DNA of 64,000 nucleotides from Escherichia coli. Its GTDB lineage: Bacteria; Pseudomonadota; Gammaproteobacteria; Enterobacterales; Enterobacteriaceae. The stretch lies in NCBI RefSeq assembly GCF_003334765.1, contig NZ_QOWT01000001.1; one strand, given 5' to 3'. Shown piece by piece: positions 3,420-10,793 of this stretch. The notes beneath the pieces were generated by a model. That model made no database searches. It worked only from the letters and a program-made list of their open reading frames with translations, and was not told the DNA's origin. Each line of letters opens with the position of its first letter. Position 1 is the first letter of the stretch. The position numbers and the translations under genes were made by a program.

Positions 3420-4727
3420 TTATTTGCTACTGTCCGGGCCGCGTTCACCGGTTGCTACCGGATTTTTTGGATCGCTGCTCCATTCGTACCAGCCGCCGTC
3501 ATACACGGAAACATTCTTCCAACCCATGGCGCGTGCGTACATAAAGGTTTCGGACGCGCGCCAGCCGGTGCCGCAGTAGAATGAAACTTGCTGCTCTGGT
3601 TTGATATTCCACGCTTTCCACATAGCGGTAATATCATCGGCGCTGCGCATGGTGCCATCCGGGTTATGAAAATCTTCCATATGCGTCGAGTCGCTACCAG
3701 CGTGTCCCCAACGTGCGCCGGCTATTTCACCTTTTGGTTTAATATAGCTGTAACCGCTGGTCGTACCGATAAATTCTGGCCACGAACGAATGCTCACCAG
3801 CGATGCATCCTGGCGATGCAGCAGTCCACGGGCCTGTTCCATATCGAGCATCAACTGCGGTTGTGCCGGGATCTTCACGCCGAAATCCGGTTCCGCTTTC
3901 ACTTTCGGTGGCGTTCCGCGCTCAACAGGCAGTCCCGCGTCGGACCAGGTTTGCCAGCCGCCATCCAGCAGGCGCACATCTTTCACGCCAGCATAAAGCA
4001 TAATCTGCGCCACACGCGCTGCAGCGTATACGTCACGCCCATACAGAATGACCGTGGTGTCATGGCGAATGCCGTGTTTTGCCAGCATCGCTTTTAGTTG
4101 TTCATCAGAAACTTTGTTCCACAGCGGTTCACTTTCCACTTCGTTGGTATCGATGTAGTCAGCGCCGGGAATATGGCTGATAAGGTAAAGCTTAGGAGCG
4201 CCCCAGGCCGCTTCAATGACTTTCCAGTCACCGGCAGGTTTCGCCGTAACCTCTTTACCTTGTTGCAGGTCGTGCAGCCATTGCGGATAAACCAGCTGCT
4301 CAAAATGCGGCAGTTTTTGCAGACGGGAAGGTTCGCTTAGCGCGTCACTCAGGATGGAGATATGCGTTAAACCTGCTTTTTGCAGTCGCGTTTTGACGGC
4401 GTCGACATCTTTGTCATTACCGTACAGCGCCACCGGAGCATCGGTTTTCAGGTTATGTTGCTTGATCCACGCGTTGAGCTGTTCGGTGCTCATTTTGTCA
4501 AGCCAGCTGGCAGAGAGGTTTAAGGCGGCAGGTTCATGACCAGAAGGGCCATTTAAGGTTTGTGGCCAGCCGTTATAAAACGCGCTGGGGCGAGTATCTA
4601 TCGCTTTGCCATTTTGTTGTTGAAGCTGGTCAAGTGTAAGAGGCTTCGCCAGTTCAGCGGCCCACGAAGAAGCGCAAGCCAGCCCTAAAGCCATTGCCAG
4701 CGCGGTCATTTGAGAAACACGTTTCAT
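3420..4727 (-). CDS. ynjE: Periplasmic multi-domain rhodanese, thiosulfate sulfurtransferase YnjE
   Basis: Long ORF 3420..4742; internal ATG at 4725-4727 gives 435 aa starting MKRVSQMTALAMALGLACASSWA (signal peptide); rhodanese active-site Cys in FYCGTGWRAS. Confidence 0.88.
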   Translation of the reverse strand: MKRVSQMTALAMALGLACASSWAAELAKPLTLDQLQQQNGKAIDTRPSAFYNGWPQTLNGPSGHEPAALNLSASWLDKMSTEQLNAWIKQHNLKTDAPVALYGNDKDVDAVKTRLQKAGLTHISILSDALSEPSRLQKLPHFEQLVYPQWLHDLQQGKEVTAKPAGDWKVIEAAWGAPKLYLISHIPGADYIDTNEVESEPLWNKVSDEQLKAMLAKHGIRHDTTVILYGRDVYAAARVAQIMLYAGVKDVRLLDGGWQTWSDAGLPVERGTPPKVKAEPDFGVKIPAQPQLMLDMEQARGLLHRQDASLVSIRSWPEFIGTTSGYSYIKPKGEIAGARWGHAGSDSTHMEDFHNPDGTMRSADDITAMWKAWNIKPEQQVSFYCGTGWRASETFMYARAMGWKNVSVYDGGWYEWSSDPKNPVATGERGPDSSK

Positions 4728-4793
4728 CGAAAATCCCGACATTGTAGTTTTGAGTGCGCCATTCTGAACTGACGCATTGAGAAAAACTTTGCG

Positions 4794-5447
4794 TTATCGC
4801 AGTTTGTTGTAATTTTCTGACCACTGCGCCATATCCAGAACAGAACTATCAGCAGGAACATCCTGGAGATCGTGCGTTACCTGAACGACGGGGATCGCCA
4901 GGGCGCGAACTTCGCTGAACACCCACTGGCGAAAATTATCGCGCAGAGCCACATCAAGACGGCTGAATGGCTCATCCAGGAGTAACGCTTTTGGTTGGGC
5001 GAGAAGGGCGCGTAGTAGAGCAACGCGCGCTCGCTGACCGCCAGACAAAGTGGCAGGATCCTGATGGAAAGCTCCCTCAAGGCCTGAACGCTCAAGTGCA
5101 TCATTCACGGCATTACGTCGGGCATTCCCTTTAAGTGTCGCCGGTAGCGCCAGCAGTAAATTTTGCCCGACACTGAACTGGTCAAATAACAGTGCATCCT
5201 GAAAAAGAATGCCAATCTGACGCTGTGCGGTGGGTAGGATGTCAATCCGTTGCTCATTGAGCCATAGCTCACCTGTACAAGAAAACTGTTCGGCCAGTGC
5301 ACCAATCATCCATGAAAACAGAGTGGATTTTCCACAGCCAGACGGCCCCATTAACGTGACAATGTCACCTTTATCCACCGTAAAGTTAACGTTTGTCAGC
5401 AAGCGGCTTTCTGGTAAACGTAGCGAAACATTTTTCACGCAGAGCAT
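4794..5447 (-). CDS. ynjD: ABC transporter ATP-binding protein YnjD
   Basis: Walker A GPSGCGKST and ABC signature LSGGQRARV; start chosen at the ATG whose A is shared with the ynjC TAA stop (TAATG), 217 aa. The longer 246-aa ORF to 5534 was rejected. Confidence 0.85.
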   Translation of the reverse strand: MLCVKNVSLRLPESRLLTNVNFTVDKGDIVTLMGPSGCGKSTLFSWMIGALAEQFSCTGELWLNEQRIDILPTAQRQIGILFQDALLFDQFSVGQNLLLALPATLKGNARRNAVNDALERSGLEGAFHQDPATLSGGQRARVALLRALLAQPKALLLDEPFSRLDVALRDNFRQWVFSEVRALAIPVVQVTHDLQDVPADSSVLDMAQWSENYNKLR

Positions 5448-9400: not shown

Positions 9401-10078
9401 TTATTCGGCGATTTTAAAGGTAACCGTTGCCAGCGTGTTATCCGCCGGGAGAACTGAGGCATTGCCTTTGAATTTAACTTCACCACGTTTTTCAACCGCA
9501 CCATAAGTGTATGTTGCATTGCTGACGATGCCGACCGGGCAGCTATCCAGACACACCAGGCAACCCGTTTTCTTCTCTTCTGCTGCCGTTAAATTACCGC
9601 CAAAGCGCATGTCCAGTTTCTTGCCATTACTGTCAACAATCACTTCATCGAAGGAATACGCTTTTGCCGCCCCTTGCCAGTTGACCGAAATATCCAGTTT
9701 GCTGCCTGTGACATGAGTCGTTTCTTTATTATCCATCGTCATGTTTTCGCCCGGCGTACCACCTGCCTCTTTCAGGGCTTCATAAAATGCTTTCGGGGTC
9801 GCATAACCCATAAACAGCGATTTATGTCCGTTGGAGCCATCTTTAAACACAATACCGTGACGAGTGTCGTCGGTGAGGAAACGACCATTAATTTGCACCA
9901 GCATGGTTACCGTATGGTTATTGGCATCGACACGCAGCGGTTGGCTGTTCGAAAGTCCGTCGTATTCCACTTTTGCCGCCGCATTCTCTTGTTGATCGCA
10001 GCCGCTAAGCCCAGCAACAGCCAGTAAACAGAGTGCAGCCAGTCCTTTTTTCCATGACACTGAATAATGTTGCAACAT
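9401..10078 (-). CDS. ydjY: Predicted lipoprotein YdjY
   Basis: Start taken at MLQHYSVSWKKGLAALCLLAVAGLSGC (lipobox LSGC), giving 225 aa; the 279-aa extension to 10240 was rejected. Confidence 0.8.
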   Translation of the reverse strand: MLQHYSVSWKKGLAALCLLAVAGLSGCDQQENAAAKVEYDGLSNSQPLRVDANNHTVTMLVQINGRFLTDDTRHGIVFKDGSNGHKSLFMGYATPKAFYEALKEAGGTPGENMTMDNKETTHVTGSKLDISVNWQGAAKAYSFDEVIVDSNGKKLDMRFGGNLTAAEEKKTGCLVCLDSCPVGIVSNATYTYGAVEKRGEVKFKGNASVLPADNTLATVTFKIAE

Positions 10079-10082
10079 CGTT

Positions 10083-10793
10083 CTATCCTTCATTTTTTGG
10101 GTGAGTAAGTGGGCTGCGGCGCGAAGCAGACAGATCCACATGTTTGTGTCGGGCGTAGAGTTTTGCGAGCTGGACGAGAATAAACAGCGCCAGGCCCGCC
10201 AGACAGAGTTGTAAAATAAAGCGCAGCGTAATGCCTTCATTGGCGAGATCGCTTGCCATCACGGTATAAATAACAATACCGGGTAGGGTCGTGAGTGCCG
10301 AAATAAGGGTATAAGGCCAGAAGGCGATTGTGGTTAATCCGTAAGCGTAATTTTGAATATTGTAAGGAAACAACGGGATTAAGCGGGTCAGAATAAGAAA
10401 ATCAATACCGTTACGCGCAATGCCTTTTTCAATGGCCTGGAAGGTATTGCTATGGCCAACGTATTTCAGCAGTAAATCACGTCCCAGCCAGCGCGCCAGC
10501 AGGAATGAGCACGAGGAGGCCAGCATGGCGGCAATTAATGAGAGTAGTGTCCCTAAGAGCGGGCCAAAAACTATTCCTCCCGCGATCACCAGTATGCTTC
10601 CTGGTAACAGCAAGAGGGTGGCAATGATGAATAACAGAATATAGAGGCTATAGCCGAAAAATCCGCTCTGGCGGATGAGTGTCTGTAAGTGGGGTAAATC
10701 GGTGAGCAGATCGAATAAACCGAAAGCGTGGATAGCGTAAATGACCAGCGCAAAAATAAGACAGGCAAAAAGAAATTTACGCTCAGCGTTCAT
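10083..10793 (-). CDS. ydjX: TVP38/TMEM64 (DedA-related) family inner-membrane protein YdjX
   Basis: Start taken at MNAERKFLFACLIFAL, giving 236 aa; polytopic; first gene of the minus-strand cluster. Confidence 0.82.
   Translation of the reverse strand: MNAERKFLFACLIFALVIYAIHAFGLFDLLTDLPHLQTLIRQSGFFGYSLYILLFIIATLLLLPGSILVIAGGIVFGPLLGTLLSLIAAMLASSCSFLLARWLGRDLLLKYVGHSNTFQAIEKGIARNGIDFLILTRLIPLFPYNIQNYAYGLTTIAFWPYTLISALTTLPGIVIYTVMASDLANEGITLRFILQLCLAGLALFILVQLAKLYARHKHVDLSASRRSPLTHPKNEG

Follow-up and report, generated by a model that had tools for sequence, protein, structure and literature searches.

A proposed anaerobic envelope system of Escherichia coli formed by ydjXYZ-ynjABCD, ynjE and the convergent ynjF

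We propose that ydjXYZ-ynjABCD, ynjE and the convergent gene ynjF of Escherichia coli constitute one anaerobically induced envelope system, in which import of a compound would be followed by its coupling to lipid, flipping across the membrane and periplasmic sulfur transfer, a reading to which we assign a probability of roughly 35%. Rather than merely taking up a sulfur nutrient, such a system probably makes a membrane-linked compound and modifies it with sulfur. The steps of this mechanism are inferred from gene content, export and anchoring signals, family membership, FNR-dependent expression from two promoters, and conserved neighbourhoods and gene fusions. The cluster itself is already catalogued, as the oxygen-repressed ydjXYZ-ynjABCD operon and ynjE of E. 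coli.

Organization and conservation of the locus

The window, a 64,000-nt stretch of E. coli DNA, holds eight open reading frames on its minus strand between positions 3420 and 10793, namely ydjX, ydjY, ydjZ, ynjA, ynjB, ynjC, ynjD and ynjE, in agreement with the RefSeq annotation (Table 1). Read from the sequence, adjacent frames are separated by 4 nt (ydjX/ydjY), 14 nt (ydjY/ydjZ), 9 nt (ynjA/ynjB, with AAGGAGAG inside the gap) and 66 nt (ynjD/ynjE), while ynjB and ynjC overlap by 28 nt, and one base is common to both genes in the TGATG of the ydjZ stop and ynjA start and in the TAATG of the ynjC/ynjD junction. All details of this arrangement given in the first-pass annotation, overlaps and 66-nt gap included, were confirmed, and the translational coupling that it proposed is plausible given the coding overlaps.

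Table 1. Coordinates of genes and regulatory features of the locus within the window
Feature	Position	Strand	Length	Description
ynjF	2791-3411	+	206 aa	CDP-alcohol phosphatidyltransferase-family membrane protein; convergent on ynjE, gap 8 nt
Inverted repeat	3382..3408		12 bp, 3-nt loop	At ynjF 3' end, 12 nt past ynjE stop codon; from repeat search and sequence
ynjE	3420-4727	-	435 aa	Exported three-domain rhodanese; separate transcription unit
ynjE promoter region	4741..4802	-		Palindrome, candidate -10 elements, 5' UTR
ynjD	4794-5447	-	217 aa	ABC ATPase
ynjC	5447-6982	-	511 aa	Permease, 12 predicted transmembrane segments
ynjB	6955-8121	-	388 aa	Periplasmic substrate-binding protein of ABC importer
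ynjA	8131-8679	-	182 aa	Soluble CMD-family protein, predicted cytoplasmic
ydjZ	8679-9386	-	235 aa	Second VTT/DedA-superfamily inner-membrane protein
ydjY	9401-10078	-	225 aa	Lipoprotein
ydjX	10083-10793	-	236 aa	VTT/DedA-superfamily inner-membrane protein, first gene of operon; TVP38/TMEM64 family protein in RefSeq
FNR box TTGAGAAAAATCAA	10903..10916	-		About 116 nt 5' of ydjX ATG

The 8.5-kb stretch is present in 5425 of 5426 complete E. coli genomes, with a coverage of at least 80% in 5384, and the same gene order is kept in E. albertii, Citrobacter and Klebsiella, the last lacking ydjY. Because of this distribution the arrangement cannot be attributed to chance, and ydjX to ynjE are core genes of E. 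coli. A single, tightly packed and co-functional cluster, as first described, is supported, and its eight genes stand; its extent does not, as the functional unit is proposed to continue beyond position 3420 and to include ynjF.

Anaerobic transcription

Published ChIP and RNA-seq data divide the K-12 genes into two anaerobic transcription units, both directly activated by FNR: ydjXYZ-ynjABCD (b1750-b1756) and ynjE (b1757), the latter with its own promoter, with expression ratios in the FNR data of 0.06 for ydjY, 0.12 for ynjB and 0.04 for ynjE. The locus studied here is the same one, with identical genes, order and FNR box. The published FNR work labels the operon products no further than "predicted proteins / predicted transporter". 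The FNR box upstream of ydjX, which has one mismatch to TTGAT-N4-ATCAA, is identical to the 14-mer given for ydjX in the supplement of Myers 2013, where the site is put at -60.5. Conservation of the box extends to E. albertii, Citrobacter and Klebsiella, and a -10-like TATACC (approximately 10863-10858) lies between the box and ydjX.

In the case of ynjE, the palindrome CTGCG-ATAA-CGCAA (4802-4789) spans the ynjD stop codon and is conserved in Citrobacter and Klebsiella; we infer that it is the FNR site of this gene. Candidate -10 elements are CAGAAT (4766-4761) and TACAAT (4746-4741), and the sole sigma-70-like consensus match between 3000 and 11300 lies at 4768..4741. The published anaerobic ChIP peaks, after conversion of coordinates, fall at approximately 4752 for sigma-70 and 4782 for FNR. 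An RNA check had been suggested on whether the operon transcript includes ynjE; these peaks within the 66-nt gap make ynjE a separate unit, although FNR control is common to both.

The encoded proteins

YdjX and YdjZ carry the Pfam VTT domain (residues 63-179, E 1.2e-25, and 81-197, E 1.6e-24, respectively), as do the DedA/VTT lipid transporters, comprising the UptA/DedA undecaprenyl-phosphate flippases and the TMEM41B/VMP1 scramblases. They differ from UptA/DedA in scoring only 26 (YdjX) and 36 bits (YdjZ) with the UptA model (cut-off 250), and from characterised DedA proteins in occurring as a pair accompanied by YdjY, an extracytoplasmic partner. Tested proteins of the DedA superfamily are lipid transporters, and its paralogues have been proposed to act on distinct lipids; in a heterologous assay of eight paralogues, YdjX and YdjZ among them, high-level MX2401 resistance, related to undecaprenyl-phosphate transport, was reported only for DedA. 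YdjZ shares 45-59% identity with proteins whose genes adjoin ydjY homologues in phyla such as Firmicutes and Campylobacterota, and 70 of the 73 loci outside the enterobacteria, which belong to anaerobes, have a VTT gene with a YdjZ-like product no more than 7 kb from ydjY. YdjY has the lipobox LSGC, with Cys27 followed by Asp28. Under the established Asp+2 rule, aspartate in this position retains lipoproteins at the inner membrane, and YdjY is therefore predicted to stay there. Its Cys173, Cys176 and Cys180, in the motif TGCLxCLDSCP, are invariant. In some proteins the YdjY domain is fused to rhodanese, and VTT proteins are in some cases fused to Fer4/CCG domains.

YnjA belongs to the CMD family (PF02627 is on record for near-identical proteins), with Cys76-x-x-Cys79 and Cys175 invariant in the alignment. 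Its description as an AhpD-like protein with a Cys motif thus holds for family and CxxC, but the alignment lacks the AhpD catalytic histidine. No transmembrane segment was predicted, and no N-terminal signal sequence was found on reading the protein. Its best NCBIfam match is the YciW-related (seleno)protein family (101 bits, cut-off 310).

The ABC importer was correctly recognised as complete. YnjB has a signal peptide ending THA/SD and exceeds the cut-off of its own NCBIfam subfamily NF008633 (560 against 203 bits); YnjC has 12 hydrophobic segments, one significant (346-502) and one weak (136-254, E 1.3) BPD_transp_1 match, and weak NCBIfam matches in both halves, consistent with a fused permease of two halves; the YnjD translation contains Walker A (GPSGCGKST), LSGGQ and Walker B (LLLDE). 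YnjBCD resembles the importers of polyamines, thiamine, iron and phosphonates (PotABCD, ThiBPQ, FbpABC, PhnSTUV), sharing with ThiBPQ and FbpABC an architecture in which a fused 12-TM permease and a short ATPase accompany the binding protein, but YnjB is about 60-70 residues longer than the binding proteins of this class, and no ThiB or ThiQ cut-off is reached. Of the 185 ABC ATPase models that YnjD matches, none is matched above its cut-off; the closest are PhnT2, CysA-type and ThiQ. Structure prediction of YnjB, suggested earlier as a guide to its ligand, gave a confident model (AlphaFold pLDDT 95), but the nearest PDB folds, of the PhnS (4R6Y), PotD, FbpA, AfuA and TbpA class, share only 12-18% identity with it and give no indication of the ligand.

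YnjE aligns with PDB chains 3IPO and 2WLR along their full length, a single substitution appearing in the printed alignment, and is, as first read, a multi-domain rhodanese with a signal peptide: three Pfam rhodanese domains are present, and the active-site Cys385 lies in CGTGWR. The next-best PDB match is 6KTV/6H98 (approximately 300 bits, E 5e-89, residues 33-427), which we take to be EanB, the Chlorobium limicola sulfurtransferase that serves as oxygen-independent ergothioneine synthase. Conservation includes the cysteine loop CGTGWR and the tyrosine region SGY-x-Y; YnjE differs in being exported. To our knowledge, E. coli has no histidine-betaine methyltransferase partner. YnjE has been placed by Seebeck's group among EanB-like enzymes of unknown function that may sulfurise heterocycles. 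The only biochemistry on a protein of the cluster concerns weak or absent rhodanese activity of YnjE: the purified protein, regarded as periplasmic, has no thiosulfate:glutathione activity and complements poorly. YnjE is not an active thiosulfate rhodanese. Among the compared loci, all YnjE-like proteins have signal or lipoprotein sequences, those of Gram-positive loci being lipoproteins, and keep Cys385 and the SGYxY motif. A functional link of ynjE to the other genes is upheld by FNR co-regulation, by exported YnjE-like rhodaneses that repeatedly adjoin YdjY/VTT genes in other phyla, and by the YdjY-rhodanese fusions.

YnjF contains the Pfam domain PF01066 (E 5e-11) and the signature D-x2-DG-x2-AR...G-x3-D-x3-D, as do the CDP-alcohol phosphatidyltransferases (PgsA, phosphatidylinositol-phosphate and archaetidylinositol-phosphate synthases, phosphatidylcholine synthase), but it stays below the cut-off of every characterised equivalog, the nearest NCBIfam families being archaetidylinositol-phosphate and PIP synthases. 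Unlike those enzymes, it is tied to an ABC binding protein by fusion and neighbourhood.

Related loci in other organisms

The fusion protein P0312 joins a YnjF-like to a YnjB-family binding-protein domain, and its gene follows two VTT genes and a C-GCAxxG-C-C gene. In Edwardsiella, whose locus lacks the ABC genes, ynjA and ynjF overlap by 8 nt beside genes for a YnjE-like rhodanese and a VTT protein. Klebsiella keeps VTT-VTT-ynjABCD-ynjE with ynjF convergent as in E. coli, a position also kept in Escherichia species, and in Firmicutes ynjF-like genes adjoin ynjB-like and ydjY/VTT genes (loci L036, L037, L044, L052, L058 and L061). Because of this fusion, overlap and adjacency, we propose ynjF as a part of the ydjXYZ-ynjABCDE system, although it lies on the opposite strand and is absent from the FNR-dependent gene lists.

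The first-pass annotation overlooked ynjF in its reading of gene content, and therefore missed a lipid theme, which consists of the CDP-alcohol phosphatidyltransferase, the VTT/DedA proteins and binding-protein fusions to membrane lipid enzymes. Besides YnjF, fusion partners of the YnjB family include a family-2 glycosyltransferase and an ICMT/PEMT-like membrane methyltransferase, and the binding proteins tested from L037, L061, L065 and the Catonella locus L034 exceed the NF008633 cut-off. Against a lipid product, CDP-alcohol transferases are also able to use soluble acceptors, and no unusual anaerobic phospholipid is known from E. coli.

In Campylobacter concisus, Syntrophus and others, the YdjY/VTT module lies inside operons with an ArsS-type radical-SAM/transferase cassette (TIGR04167, TIGR04282 and TIGR04283, named "arsenosugar biosynthesis" by NCBI). 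The tight C. concisus operon encodes YdjY, a 4-TM protein, a TIGR04282 and kinase protein, YdjZ-like and YdjX-like proteins, TIGR04283, a Fer4/CCG protein, ArsS (448 bits, cut-off 300) and a C-GCAxxG-C-C protein. In C. concisus, Syntrophus, Thermincola and Parvimonas, the cassette lies in the same operon as genes for YdjY, YdjZ-like, YdjX-like and rhodanese proteins; ArsS was counted in 9 loci, the transferases in 13 genome loci. All three cassette genes are missing from the E. coli cluster, which carries the ABC importer and YnjF in their stead. In Catonella, one operon combines YnjBCD with a kinase and the transferases; no ArsS was found in the flanks examined, and the importer stands where ArsS is elsewhere.

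Possible function of the system

In the mechanism that we propose, the cytoplasm would receive through YnjBCD a small polar compound, an alcohol or sugar-like, which YnjF could join to a membrane lipid phosphate carrier. YdjX and YdjZ would then bring this compound in its lipid-linked form, or else its carrier, across to the periplasmic leaflet. There, YnjE may transfer sulfur, with the inner-membrane-anchored, three-cysteine YdjY relaying sulfur or thiol, while YnjA, with its CxxC and third invariant cysteine, might act as a cytoplasmic thiol-redox helper. In other anaerobes, the YdjY/VTT module is instead connected to a biosynthetic front end of ArsS-type radical-SAM enzyme, kinase/nucleotidyltransferase and family-2 glycosyltransferase, so that the E. 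coli version could represent the import (salvage) variant of an ArsS-linked pathway.

Sulfur processing, suggested from the start, is retained in this scheme, as a sulfur-transfer step is judged likely. Uptake and assimilation of a sulfur-containing or redox-active nutrient, such as thiosulfate or organosulfur, imported by YnjBCD and processed by YnjE and YnjA, is in our opinion quite improbable. The exported rhodanese, the YciW-related match of YnjA, the likeness of YnjD to sulfate/thiosulfate and phosphonate ATPases, weak CysT and ModB matches of YnjC and the YdjY-rhodanese fusions would agree with it. However, the cluster does not resemble a sulfur-nutrient uptake system, because it is controlled by FNR (sulfur-starvation control is not reported in the literature searched), its ABC components fall far short of the CysPUWA and ThiBPQ cut-offs of NCBIfam profiles, every Cys- and thiamine-transporter equivalog cut-off being widely missed, and YnjE lacks thiosulfate:glutathione activity and complements poorly. 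It would also leave unexplained the conserved association with a CDP-alcohol phosphatidyltransferase, two VTT proteins, glycosyltransferases and a kinase. The published view, also in EcoCyc, that YnjE provides sulfur for molybdenum-cofactor synthesis, with the cluster serving anaerobic molybdoenzymes of the FNR regulon, is very improbable: the FNR study names YnjE "molybdopterin synthase sulfurtransferase" with this same rationale, and ynjE shares its expression pattern with dms, nar and frd genes, but cofactor synthesis is cytoplasmic, whereas YnjE carries a cleavable signal peptide and is regarded as periplasmic, its Gram-positive orthologues are lipoproteins, and the other eight genes would be left unexplained.

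It is also conceivable, but unlikely, that ydjXYZ, ynjABCD, ynjE and ynjF are a mosaic of independent modules, co-expressed under anoxia without a common substrate. Each module is found alone elsewhere, which speaks against a single system: YnjB and permease occur by themselves in aerobic and marine contigs, ydjY with a single VTT gene in Gemella and Finegoldia, while Klebsiella lacks ydjY and Edwardsiella the ABC genes; moreover, ynjE and ynjF have their own promoters. On the other hand, identical combinations are encountered repeatedly across Enterobacterales, Firmicutes and Campylobacterota, modules are linked by YnjF-YnjB, glycosyltransferase-YnjB, VTT-Fer4/CCG and YdjY-rhodanese fusions, and overlaps cross module borders at ydjZ/ynjA in E. 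coli and ynjA/ynjF in Edwardsiella. Handling of a metalloid or soft metal (arsenic, selenium, tellurium, antimony) has a small chance of being the common function, with the YdjY cysteines binding the element outside, the VTT proteins moving it, YnjA and YnjE reducing or thiolating it, and the importer taking up an organo-metalloid. Such a role would suit the three invariant cysteines of YdjY (clustered) and of YnjA, a weak YnjE match to the selenite/tellurite rhodanese ExtH, and partners (ArsS cassette, C-GCAxxG-C-C, TsoB-like rhodanese, ArsM/AhpD fusion family) with selenocysteine variants and links to metalloid chemistry; a DedA protein is also linked to selenite uptake. Still, classical ars genes are not recurrent neighbours, occurring in one Finegoldia locus only, the E. 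coli cluster lacks ArsS and ArsM, the sole stress response on record is a BaeR effect of 1.4- to 1.6-fold, and the NCBIfam "arsenosugar" names are based on one cyanobacterial ArsS and may not fit these anaerobes.

At the convergent junction, the inverted repeat (Table 1) is a candidate for a terminator shared by ynjE and ynjF. The two are listed as a convergent pair with overlapping transcripts, through which ynjE may antagonise ynjF.

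Gene order and coding junctions

The region corresponds to the E. coli ydjXYZ-ynjABCD / ynjE locus, with the same genes in the same order, near-identical DNA and agreeing RefSeq names. A query covering 3000-11500 was matched in 5425 of 5426 complete E. coli genomes, with at least 80% of its length covered in 5384, and strain H3 showed 100% identity to it. The genes, the operon, the structure of YnjE and the FNR control are all published, and the feature as such is already known. The first-pass annotation had described a coupled eight-gene cluster on the minus strand. This description was confirmed and all of its junctions were found to be correct, namely TGATG at ydjZ/ynjA, a 28-nt overlap of ynjB and ynjC, TAATG at ynjC/ynjD and a gap of 66 nt before ynjE. 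The other intergenic gaps in the cluster are 4, 14 and 9 nt long, Shine-Dalgarno-like sequences precede most of the start codons, and xthA forms the upstream flank.

Positions of genes and sequence elements in and around the cluster
Feature	Position	Strand	Source or remark
ynjH	2059-2331	+	convergent with nudG
FNR-like 14-mer TTTATCAGGATCAA	2207-2220		one mismatch; inside ynjH
nudG	2297-2704	minus	coding overlap with ynjH, 35 nt
ynjF	2791-3411	+	downstream of cluster, convergent
Inverted repeat/hairpin, 12 bp	3382-3408		inside ynjF 3' end, at ynjE/ynjF junction
ynjE	3420-4727	minus	RefSeq
ynjE upstream ORF extension	4727-4742		ATG 4742
ynjD	4794-5447	minus	RefSeq
Palindrome CTGCG-ATAA-CGCAA	4802-4789		candidate FNR site of ynjE
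ynjC	5447-6982	minus	RefSeq
ynjD upstream ORF extension	5447-5534		ATG 5534
ynjB	6955-8121	minus	RefSeq
ynjA stop and ynjB start	8121-8133		TAA GGA GAG ATG ATG
ynjA	8131-8679	minus	RefSeq
ydjZ	8679-9386	minus	RefSeq
ydjY	9401-10078	minus	RefSeq
ydjX	10083-10793	minus	RefSeq
ydjY upstream ORF extension	10078-10240		ATG 10240
ydjX upstream ORF extension	10793-10841		TTG 10841
FNR box TTGAGAAAAATCAA	10916-10903		upstream of ydjX
Arginine succinyltransferase operon (astC, astA onward)	12212-13432 onward	+	begins just past xthA

Open reading frames reach upstream of the annotated starts of ydjX, ydjY, ynjE and ynjD, and the annotated starts fit signal peptides and Shine-Dalgarno sites better than these alternatives. 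YdjY versions of 246 aa and 279 aa are carried by UniProt and AFDB. The stop codon of ynjA and the start of ynjB share one reading frame, and a recorded protein of 574 aa (P0122), 99% identical to YnjB, also contains a CMD domain; read-through of the stop codon or an artefact of gene calling presumably accounts for it. A foreign origin was not indicated by base composition, the GC content of the genes (48-57%) being unremarkable against 50% for the window, and none of the seven proteins compared with the PADLOC anti-phage defence models gave a match. Scanning 2000-12300 against Rfam with E values up to 1 revealed no riboswitch or sRNA in either leader, and its tmRNA-like match of 20 bits was a chance match.

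Regulation and transcription units

The cluster belongs to the FNR regulon, as indicated by an FNR box (TTGAT-N4-ATCAA) at an activating position together with published FNR-dependent expression. The box upstream of ydjX is kept in E. albertii, Citrobacter and Klebsiella, and the supplements of Myers et al. 2013 assign it to this gene. According to the same study, ydjXYZ-ynjABCD is directly activated by FNR from a site at -60.5, and ynjE is a second unit, likewise under direct FNR activation, whose site is at -41.5. Sigma-70 ChIP signals were anaerobic-specific at both promoters (ydjX, 14 to 1180; ynjE, 10 to 609), and expression ratios from ydjY through ynjE were 0.04-0.33 (Myers et al. 2013). 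As to whether ynjE shares the transcript of the genes before it, a question left by the first-pass annotation, these data place ynjE in a unit of its own under the same FNR control, with two transcripts and one regulator in all.

After coordinate conversion, the published ynjE ChIP peaks for FNR (~4782) and sigma-70 (~4752) map to where ynjD ends and to the following 66-nt gap, which also holds the region's sole promoter-like consensus match. No FNR 14-mer with up to three mismatches occurs in 4728-4940. A degenerate palindrome spans the stop codon of ynjD and is kept in Citrobacter and Klebsiella; its centre would lie at -41.5 if the ynjE start site were near 4754, and it could represent the FNR site of ynjE.

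ynjF is absent from published FNR-dependent gene lists. It ends 8 nt from the stop codon of ynjE, with a hairpin at the junction, and ynjE-ynjF is entered in a published RNA-seq survey as convergent genes whose transcripts overlap ('excludon'), so the two may interfere with each other.

Protein families of the cluster

YnjBCD has the composition of a type I ABC importer, with an exported binding protein, a BPD_transp_1 permease and an ATPase holding Walker A, signature and Walker B motifs. YnjC shows 12 predicted transmembrane segments, consistent with two fused permease halves, and for YnjB there is a separate NCBIfam subfamily, NF008633 (560 bits). None of the NCBIfam equivalog cut-offs for thiamine, sulfate and phosphonate transporters was reached. 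The thiamine importer ThiBPQ, a label given by JGI to YnjB homologues, was rejected, as the ThiQ models gave 130 bits against 245-298 and no ThiB model matched YnjB; TbpA is one among many remote fold matches, at 14% identity. The sulfate/thiosulfate importer CysPUWA was likewise discarded (CysA, 110 bits against 502; CysT, 22 bits against 246-415). Structure prediction, which the first-pass annotation had suggested as a way to the ligand class of YnjB, gave a confident model (pLDDT 95) but allowed no ligand call; the fold neighbours are phosphonate, polyamine, iron, sugar-phosphate and thiamine binders with 12-18% identity, and a PDB sequence search found nothing.

YnjE is a rhodanese sulfurtransferase of three domains, in which Cys385 of the six-residue loop CGTGWR is invariant among homologues, and it matches the crystallised three-domain rhodanese PDB 3IPO/2WLR. 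Its best solved relative after its own structures is PDB 6KTV/6H98 (~300 bits over residues 33-427, with the CGTGWR and SGYxY region conserved), which we take to be EanB, an oxygen-independent ergothioneine synthase. In citing the YnjE structure, the discoverers of the EanB class place it with 'EanB-like enzymes', whose reaction may be the attachment of sulfur to heterocycles. In the literature YnjE is treated as periplasmic, with no thiosulfate:glutathione activity and absent or poor thiosulfate activity, and as an enzyme whose physiological substrate is unclear.

YdjY is a member of the small family PF27149 / NF040466 (146 bits, cut-off 50), with TRH and TGCLxCLDSCP motifs and invariant residues Arg73, His74, Cys173, Cys176 and Cys180. 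Its lipobox Cys27 is followed by Asp and, since lipoproteins with Asp in this position are retained at the inner membrane (Asp+2 rule), YdjY is predicted to reside on the periplasmic face of this membrane. The 4Fe-4S ferredoxin label of UniProt and JGI was rejected when judged by the CxxCxxCxxxCP four-cysteine motif and a ferredoxin fold. Foldseek against AFDB50 found the YdjY fold joined to a rhodanese/sulfurtransferase in some proteins.

YdjX (E 1.2e-25) and YdjZ (E 1.6e-24) belong to the VTT/DedA superfamily (PF09335) and contain the hydrophobic segments of polytopic membrane proteins. With 26 and 36 bits against an equivalog cut-off of 250 bits, they were not accepted as the undecaprenyl-phosphate transporter UptA (NF052604), and they are also far under the DedA equivalog cut-off. 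YnjA is a soluble, predicted cytoplasmic protein with a CMD domain (PF02627) and an invariant CxxC (Cys76/Cys79) and Cys175; the family that it forms with its homologues is small and occurs mostly in Enterobacterales. It was rejected as an AhpD-type alkylhydroperoxidase, because no His follows four residues past the second Cys in any of the 23 homologues (CxxCxxxH absent), and its score against TIGR01926 is 22.7 bits (cut-off 81.8). An ArsR-like arsenite site in its CxCxxC was discarded too, as the first Cys (Cys74) varies in distant homologues. YnjF is a CDP-alcohol phosphatidyltransferase (PF01066, E 5e-11), and its translation reads DGLDGALAR...GGFLDISLD, in accordance with D-x2-DG-x2-AR...G-x3-D-x3-D.

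Neighbourhoods and fusions in other genomes

YdjY homologues with 45-60% identity are present in anaerobes of other phyla. For the comparison, 80 genome loci were fetched, 73 of them non-enterobacterial, and the E. coli proteins were mapped onto their ORFs. In 70 of these 73 loci, ydjY has a VTT gene no more than 7 kb away; it is mostly a YdjZ orthologue (45-59% identical to E. coli YdjZ), and a second, YdjX-like gene is frequent. In many loci the gene after ydjY encodes a small membrane protein of four helices, which in Firmicutes is fused to the YdjZ-like protein and which E. coli lacks. The neighbourhoods of ydjY also contain C-GCAxxG-C-C proteins, a flippase-like TIGR00374 protein and single-domain rhodaneses. 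The YnjE-like rhodaneses beside ydjY in Catonella, a Peptostreptococcaceae genome and Campylobacter all have signal or lipoprotein sequences and retain the catalytic Cys and the SGYxY motif. Deltaproteobacteria have proteins of about 590-690 aa in which a VTT domain of YdjX type is joined to a Fer4/CCG domain resembling heterodisulfide reductase (loci L004 / L050 from Desulfarculus, L027, L028, L060, L079, L083 and L084), a fusion type that to our knowledge has no earlier description for DedA proteins; in many other ydjY loci Fer4/CCG is a separate protein.

YnjB-like binding proteins adjoin ydjY/VTT genes in several Firmicutes, and those tested, one from Catonella included, are true NF008633 members (381-491 bits). 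In aerobic and marine contigs the ABC importer family is also found by itself. The representatives of the YnjB family at 50% identity included three fusion proteins, joining YnjB to a YnjF-like transferase (P0312), a family-2 glycosyltransferase (P0251) or an ICMT/PEMT-like membrane methyltransferase (P0313); the gene for the first is preceded by two VTT genes and one for a C-GCAxxG-C-C protein. YnjF-like genes frequently adjoin the YnjB-like genes of the Firmicutes (loci L036, L037, L044, L052, L058 and L061). In Edwardsiella hoshinae, ynjA and ynjF overlap by 8 nt and are followed by a convergent YnjE-like rhodanese gene and a VTT gene. Klebsiella pneumoniae has, at the same chromosomal site, the order xthA, VTT, VTT, ynjA, ynjB, ynjC, ynjD, ynjE and convergent ynjF, with no ydjY. 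The YnjF-YnjB fusion, the Edwardsiella overlap, the Firmicutes neighbours and this Klebsiella locus are leads, rather than proofs, that ynjF is part of the functional unit and ydjY an accessory part of it. The K. pneumoniae locus (L099, 8651-15958) lies between xthA and nudG, and its two VTT genes overlap directly.

Some ydjY neighbours have no E. coli counterpart, namely TIGR04167 (ArsS, 'arsenosugar biosynthesis radical SAM (seleno)protein') and the transferases TIGR04282 and TIGR04283, all above curated cut-offs. ArsS was found in 9 loci and the transferases in 13. The presence of this cassette in E. coli itself was rejected, as its three models match 0 of the 9 E. coli proteins and found their matches only in related loci of other bacteria. 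In Campylobacter concisus (L057, 1347-8906), a tight operon of ten genes encodes, in this order, YdjY, a 4-TM protein, a TIGR04282+kinase protein, YdjZ-like and YdjX-like proteins, then TIGR04283, DUF6037 (5912-6526), a Fer4/CCG protein, ArsS and a C-GCAxxG-C-C protein; its four-helix membrane protein of 125 aa matched no family. The Catonella operon encodes YnjD, YnjC, YnjB, a kinase, TIGR04282/04283, Fer4/CCG, VTT, a 4-TM protein and a rhodanese, and diverges from ydjY and a VTT gene, with no ArsS within the fetched flanks. From these two operons and the YnjF-type loci, the YdjY/VTT/rhodanese back end is therefore common to three variants: a biosynthetic one with ArsS and the transferases, an import one with the transferases, and an import one with YnjF, the last in E. 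coli, Klebsiella and several Clostridia.

ArsA, Acr3 and ArsC were rejected as general neighbours of ydjY, being present in one Finegoldia locus only (L006, 1-2713), where they form an arsenic-resistance operon (arsA-acr3-arsC) some 6-7 kb upstream of the ydjY homologue. Its presence there is probably a coincidence, as no other fetched locus shows such an operon.

Possible function of the cluster

Our leading, still tentative reading, with a probability of roughly 0.35, is that the cluster and ynjF form an FNR-induced envelope pathway. A polar, hydroxyl-bearing compound would be imported by YnjBCD and coupled to a lipid phosphate by YnjF, the lipid-linked species would be translocated by YdjX and YdjZ, and YnjE, aided by the membrane-anchored Cys3 protein YdjY, could transfer sulfur on the periplasmic face, with YnjA as a cytoplasmic thiol-redox partner. 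What the data show are the gene content, the localisation signals, the regulation, the neighbourhoods and the fusions; the chemistry of every step is inferred. Against such a pathway stand the separate occurrence of its modules, the lack of visible FNR dependence of ynjF, the YnjB structure that gives no clue to the ligand, and a published heterologous test of all eight E. coli DedA paralogues for undecaprenyl-phosphate transport, in which only DedA gave high-level resistance.

The modules that occur apart would also suit an unrelated mosaic, which in view of the recurrent neighbourhoods and the fusions we consider unlikely. Uptake of a sulfur nutrient, towards which the first-pass annotation leaned, would accord with an importer accompanied by a rhodanese, and with YnjBCD below the sulfate transporter cut-offs it seems quite improbable, while a supply of sulfur for the molybdenum cofactor, another possible employment of a sulfurtransferase, is very improbable indeed. 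Metalloid handling could draw on the ArsS cassette in related loci; classical ars genes were not recurrent neighbours in the fetched ydjY loci, and we give this explanation little chance. The cassette has a sole biochemical anchor, the movement of the 5'-deoxyadenosyl group of SAM by ArsS in arsenosugar biosynthesis. A more specific form of the envelope pathway, which we regard as a long shot, supposes a widespread and so far undescribed pathway of anaerobic metabolism with two branches, a biosynthetic one that uses an ArsS-type radical-SAM enzyme and an import (salvage) one, the latter represented by the E. coli cluster. The imported compound would then be a SAM-derived pentose with a heteroatom at C5, arsenosugar-like or thiosugar-like, coming from the diet or neighbouring bacteria; YnjF would attach it to phospholipid, YdjX/YdjZ would flip it, and YnjE with YdjY would thiolate it on the periplasmic face. 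The product, if so, would be a new membrane lipid that carries sulfur or a metalloid and is made under anoxia only.

Searches by gene name retrieved no functional study of ydjX, ydjY, ydjZ, ynjA-D or ynjF, only regulon lists, knockout screens and DedA surveys. In the literature searched, no paper was found with the ynjF membership, the module-linking fusions or the YdjXYZ module inside ArsS-cassette operons; these three are leads rather than proofs. The nine genes are core genes of the best-studied bacterium; absence of oxygen induces them strongly, and they have no assigned function. [quoted passage not shown] Should a new anaerobic lipid or a salvage route for organo-metalloids emerge, it would bear on gut physiology and DedA biology; otherwise the locus would be an ordinary entry among E. 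coli genes without known function.

Flanking genes

The arginine succinyltransferase operon past xthA is an ordinary E. coli context, kept in Klebsiella too. On the other side, the convergent genes ynjH and nudG overlap in their coding sequences, an FNR-like 14-mer lies within ynjH, and nudG-ynjH is among the pairs with overlapping transcripts in the published RNA-seq survey.
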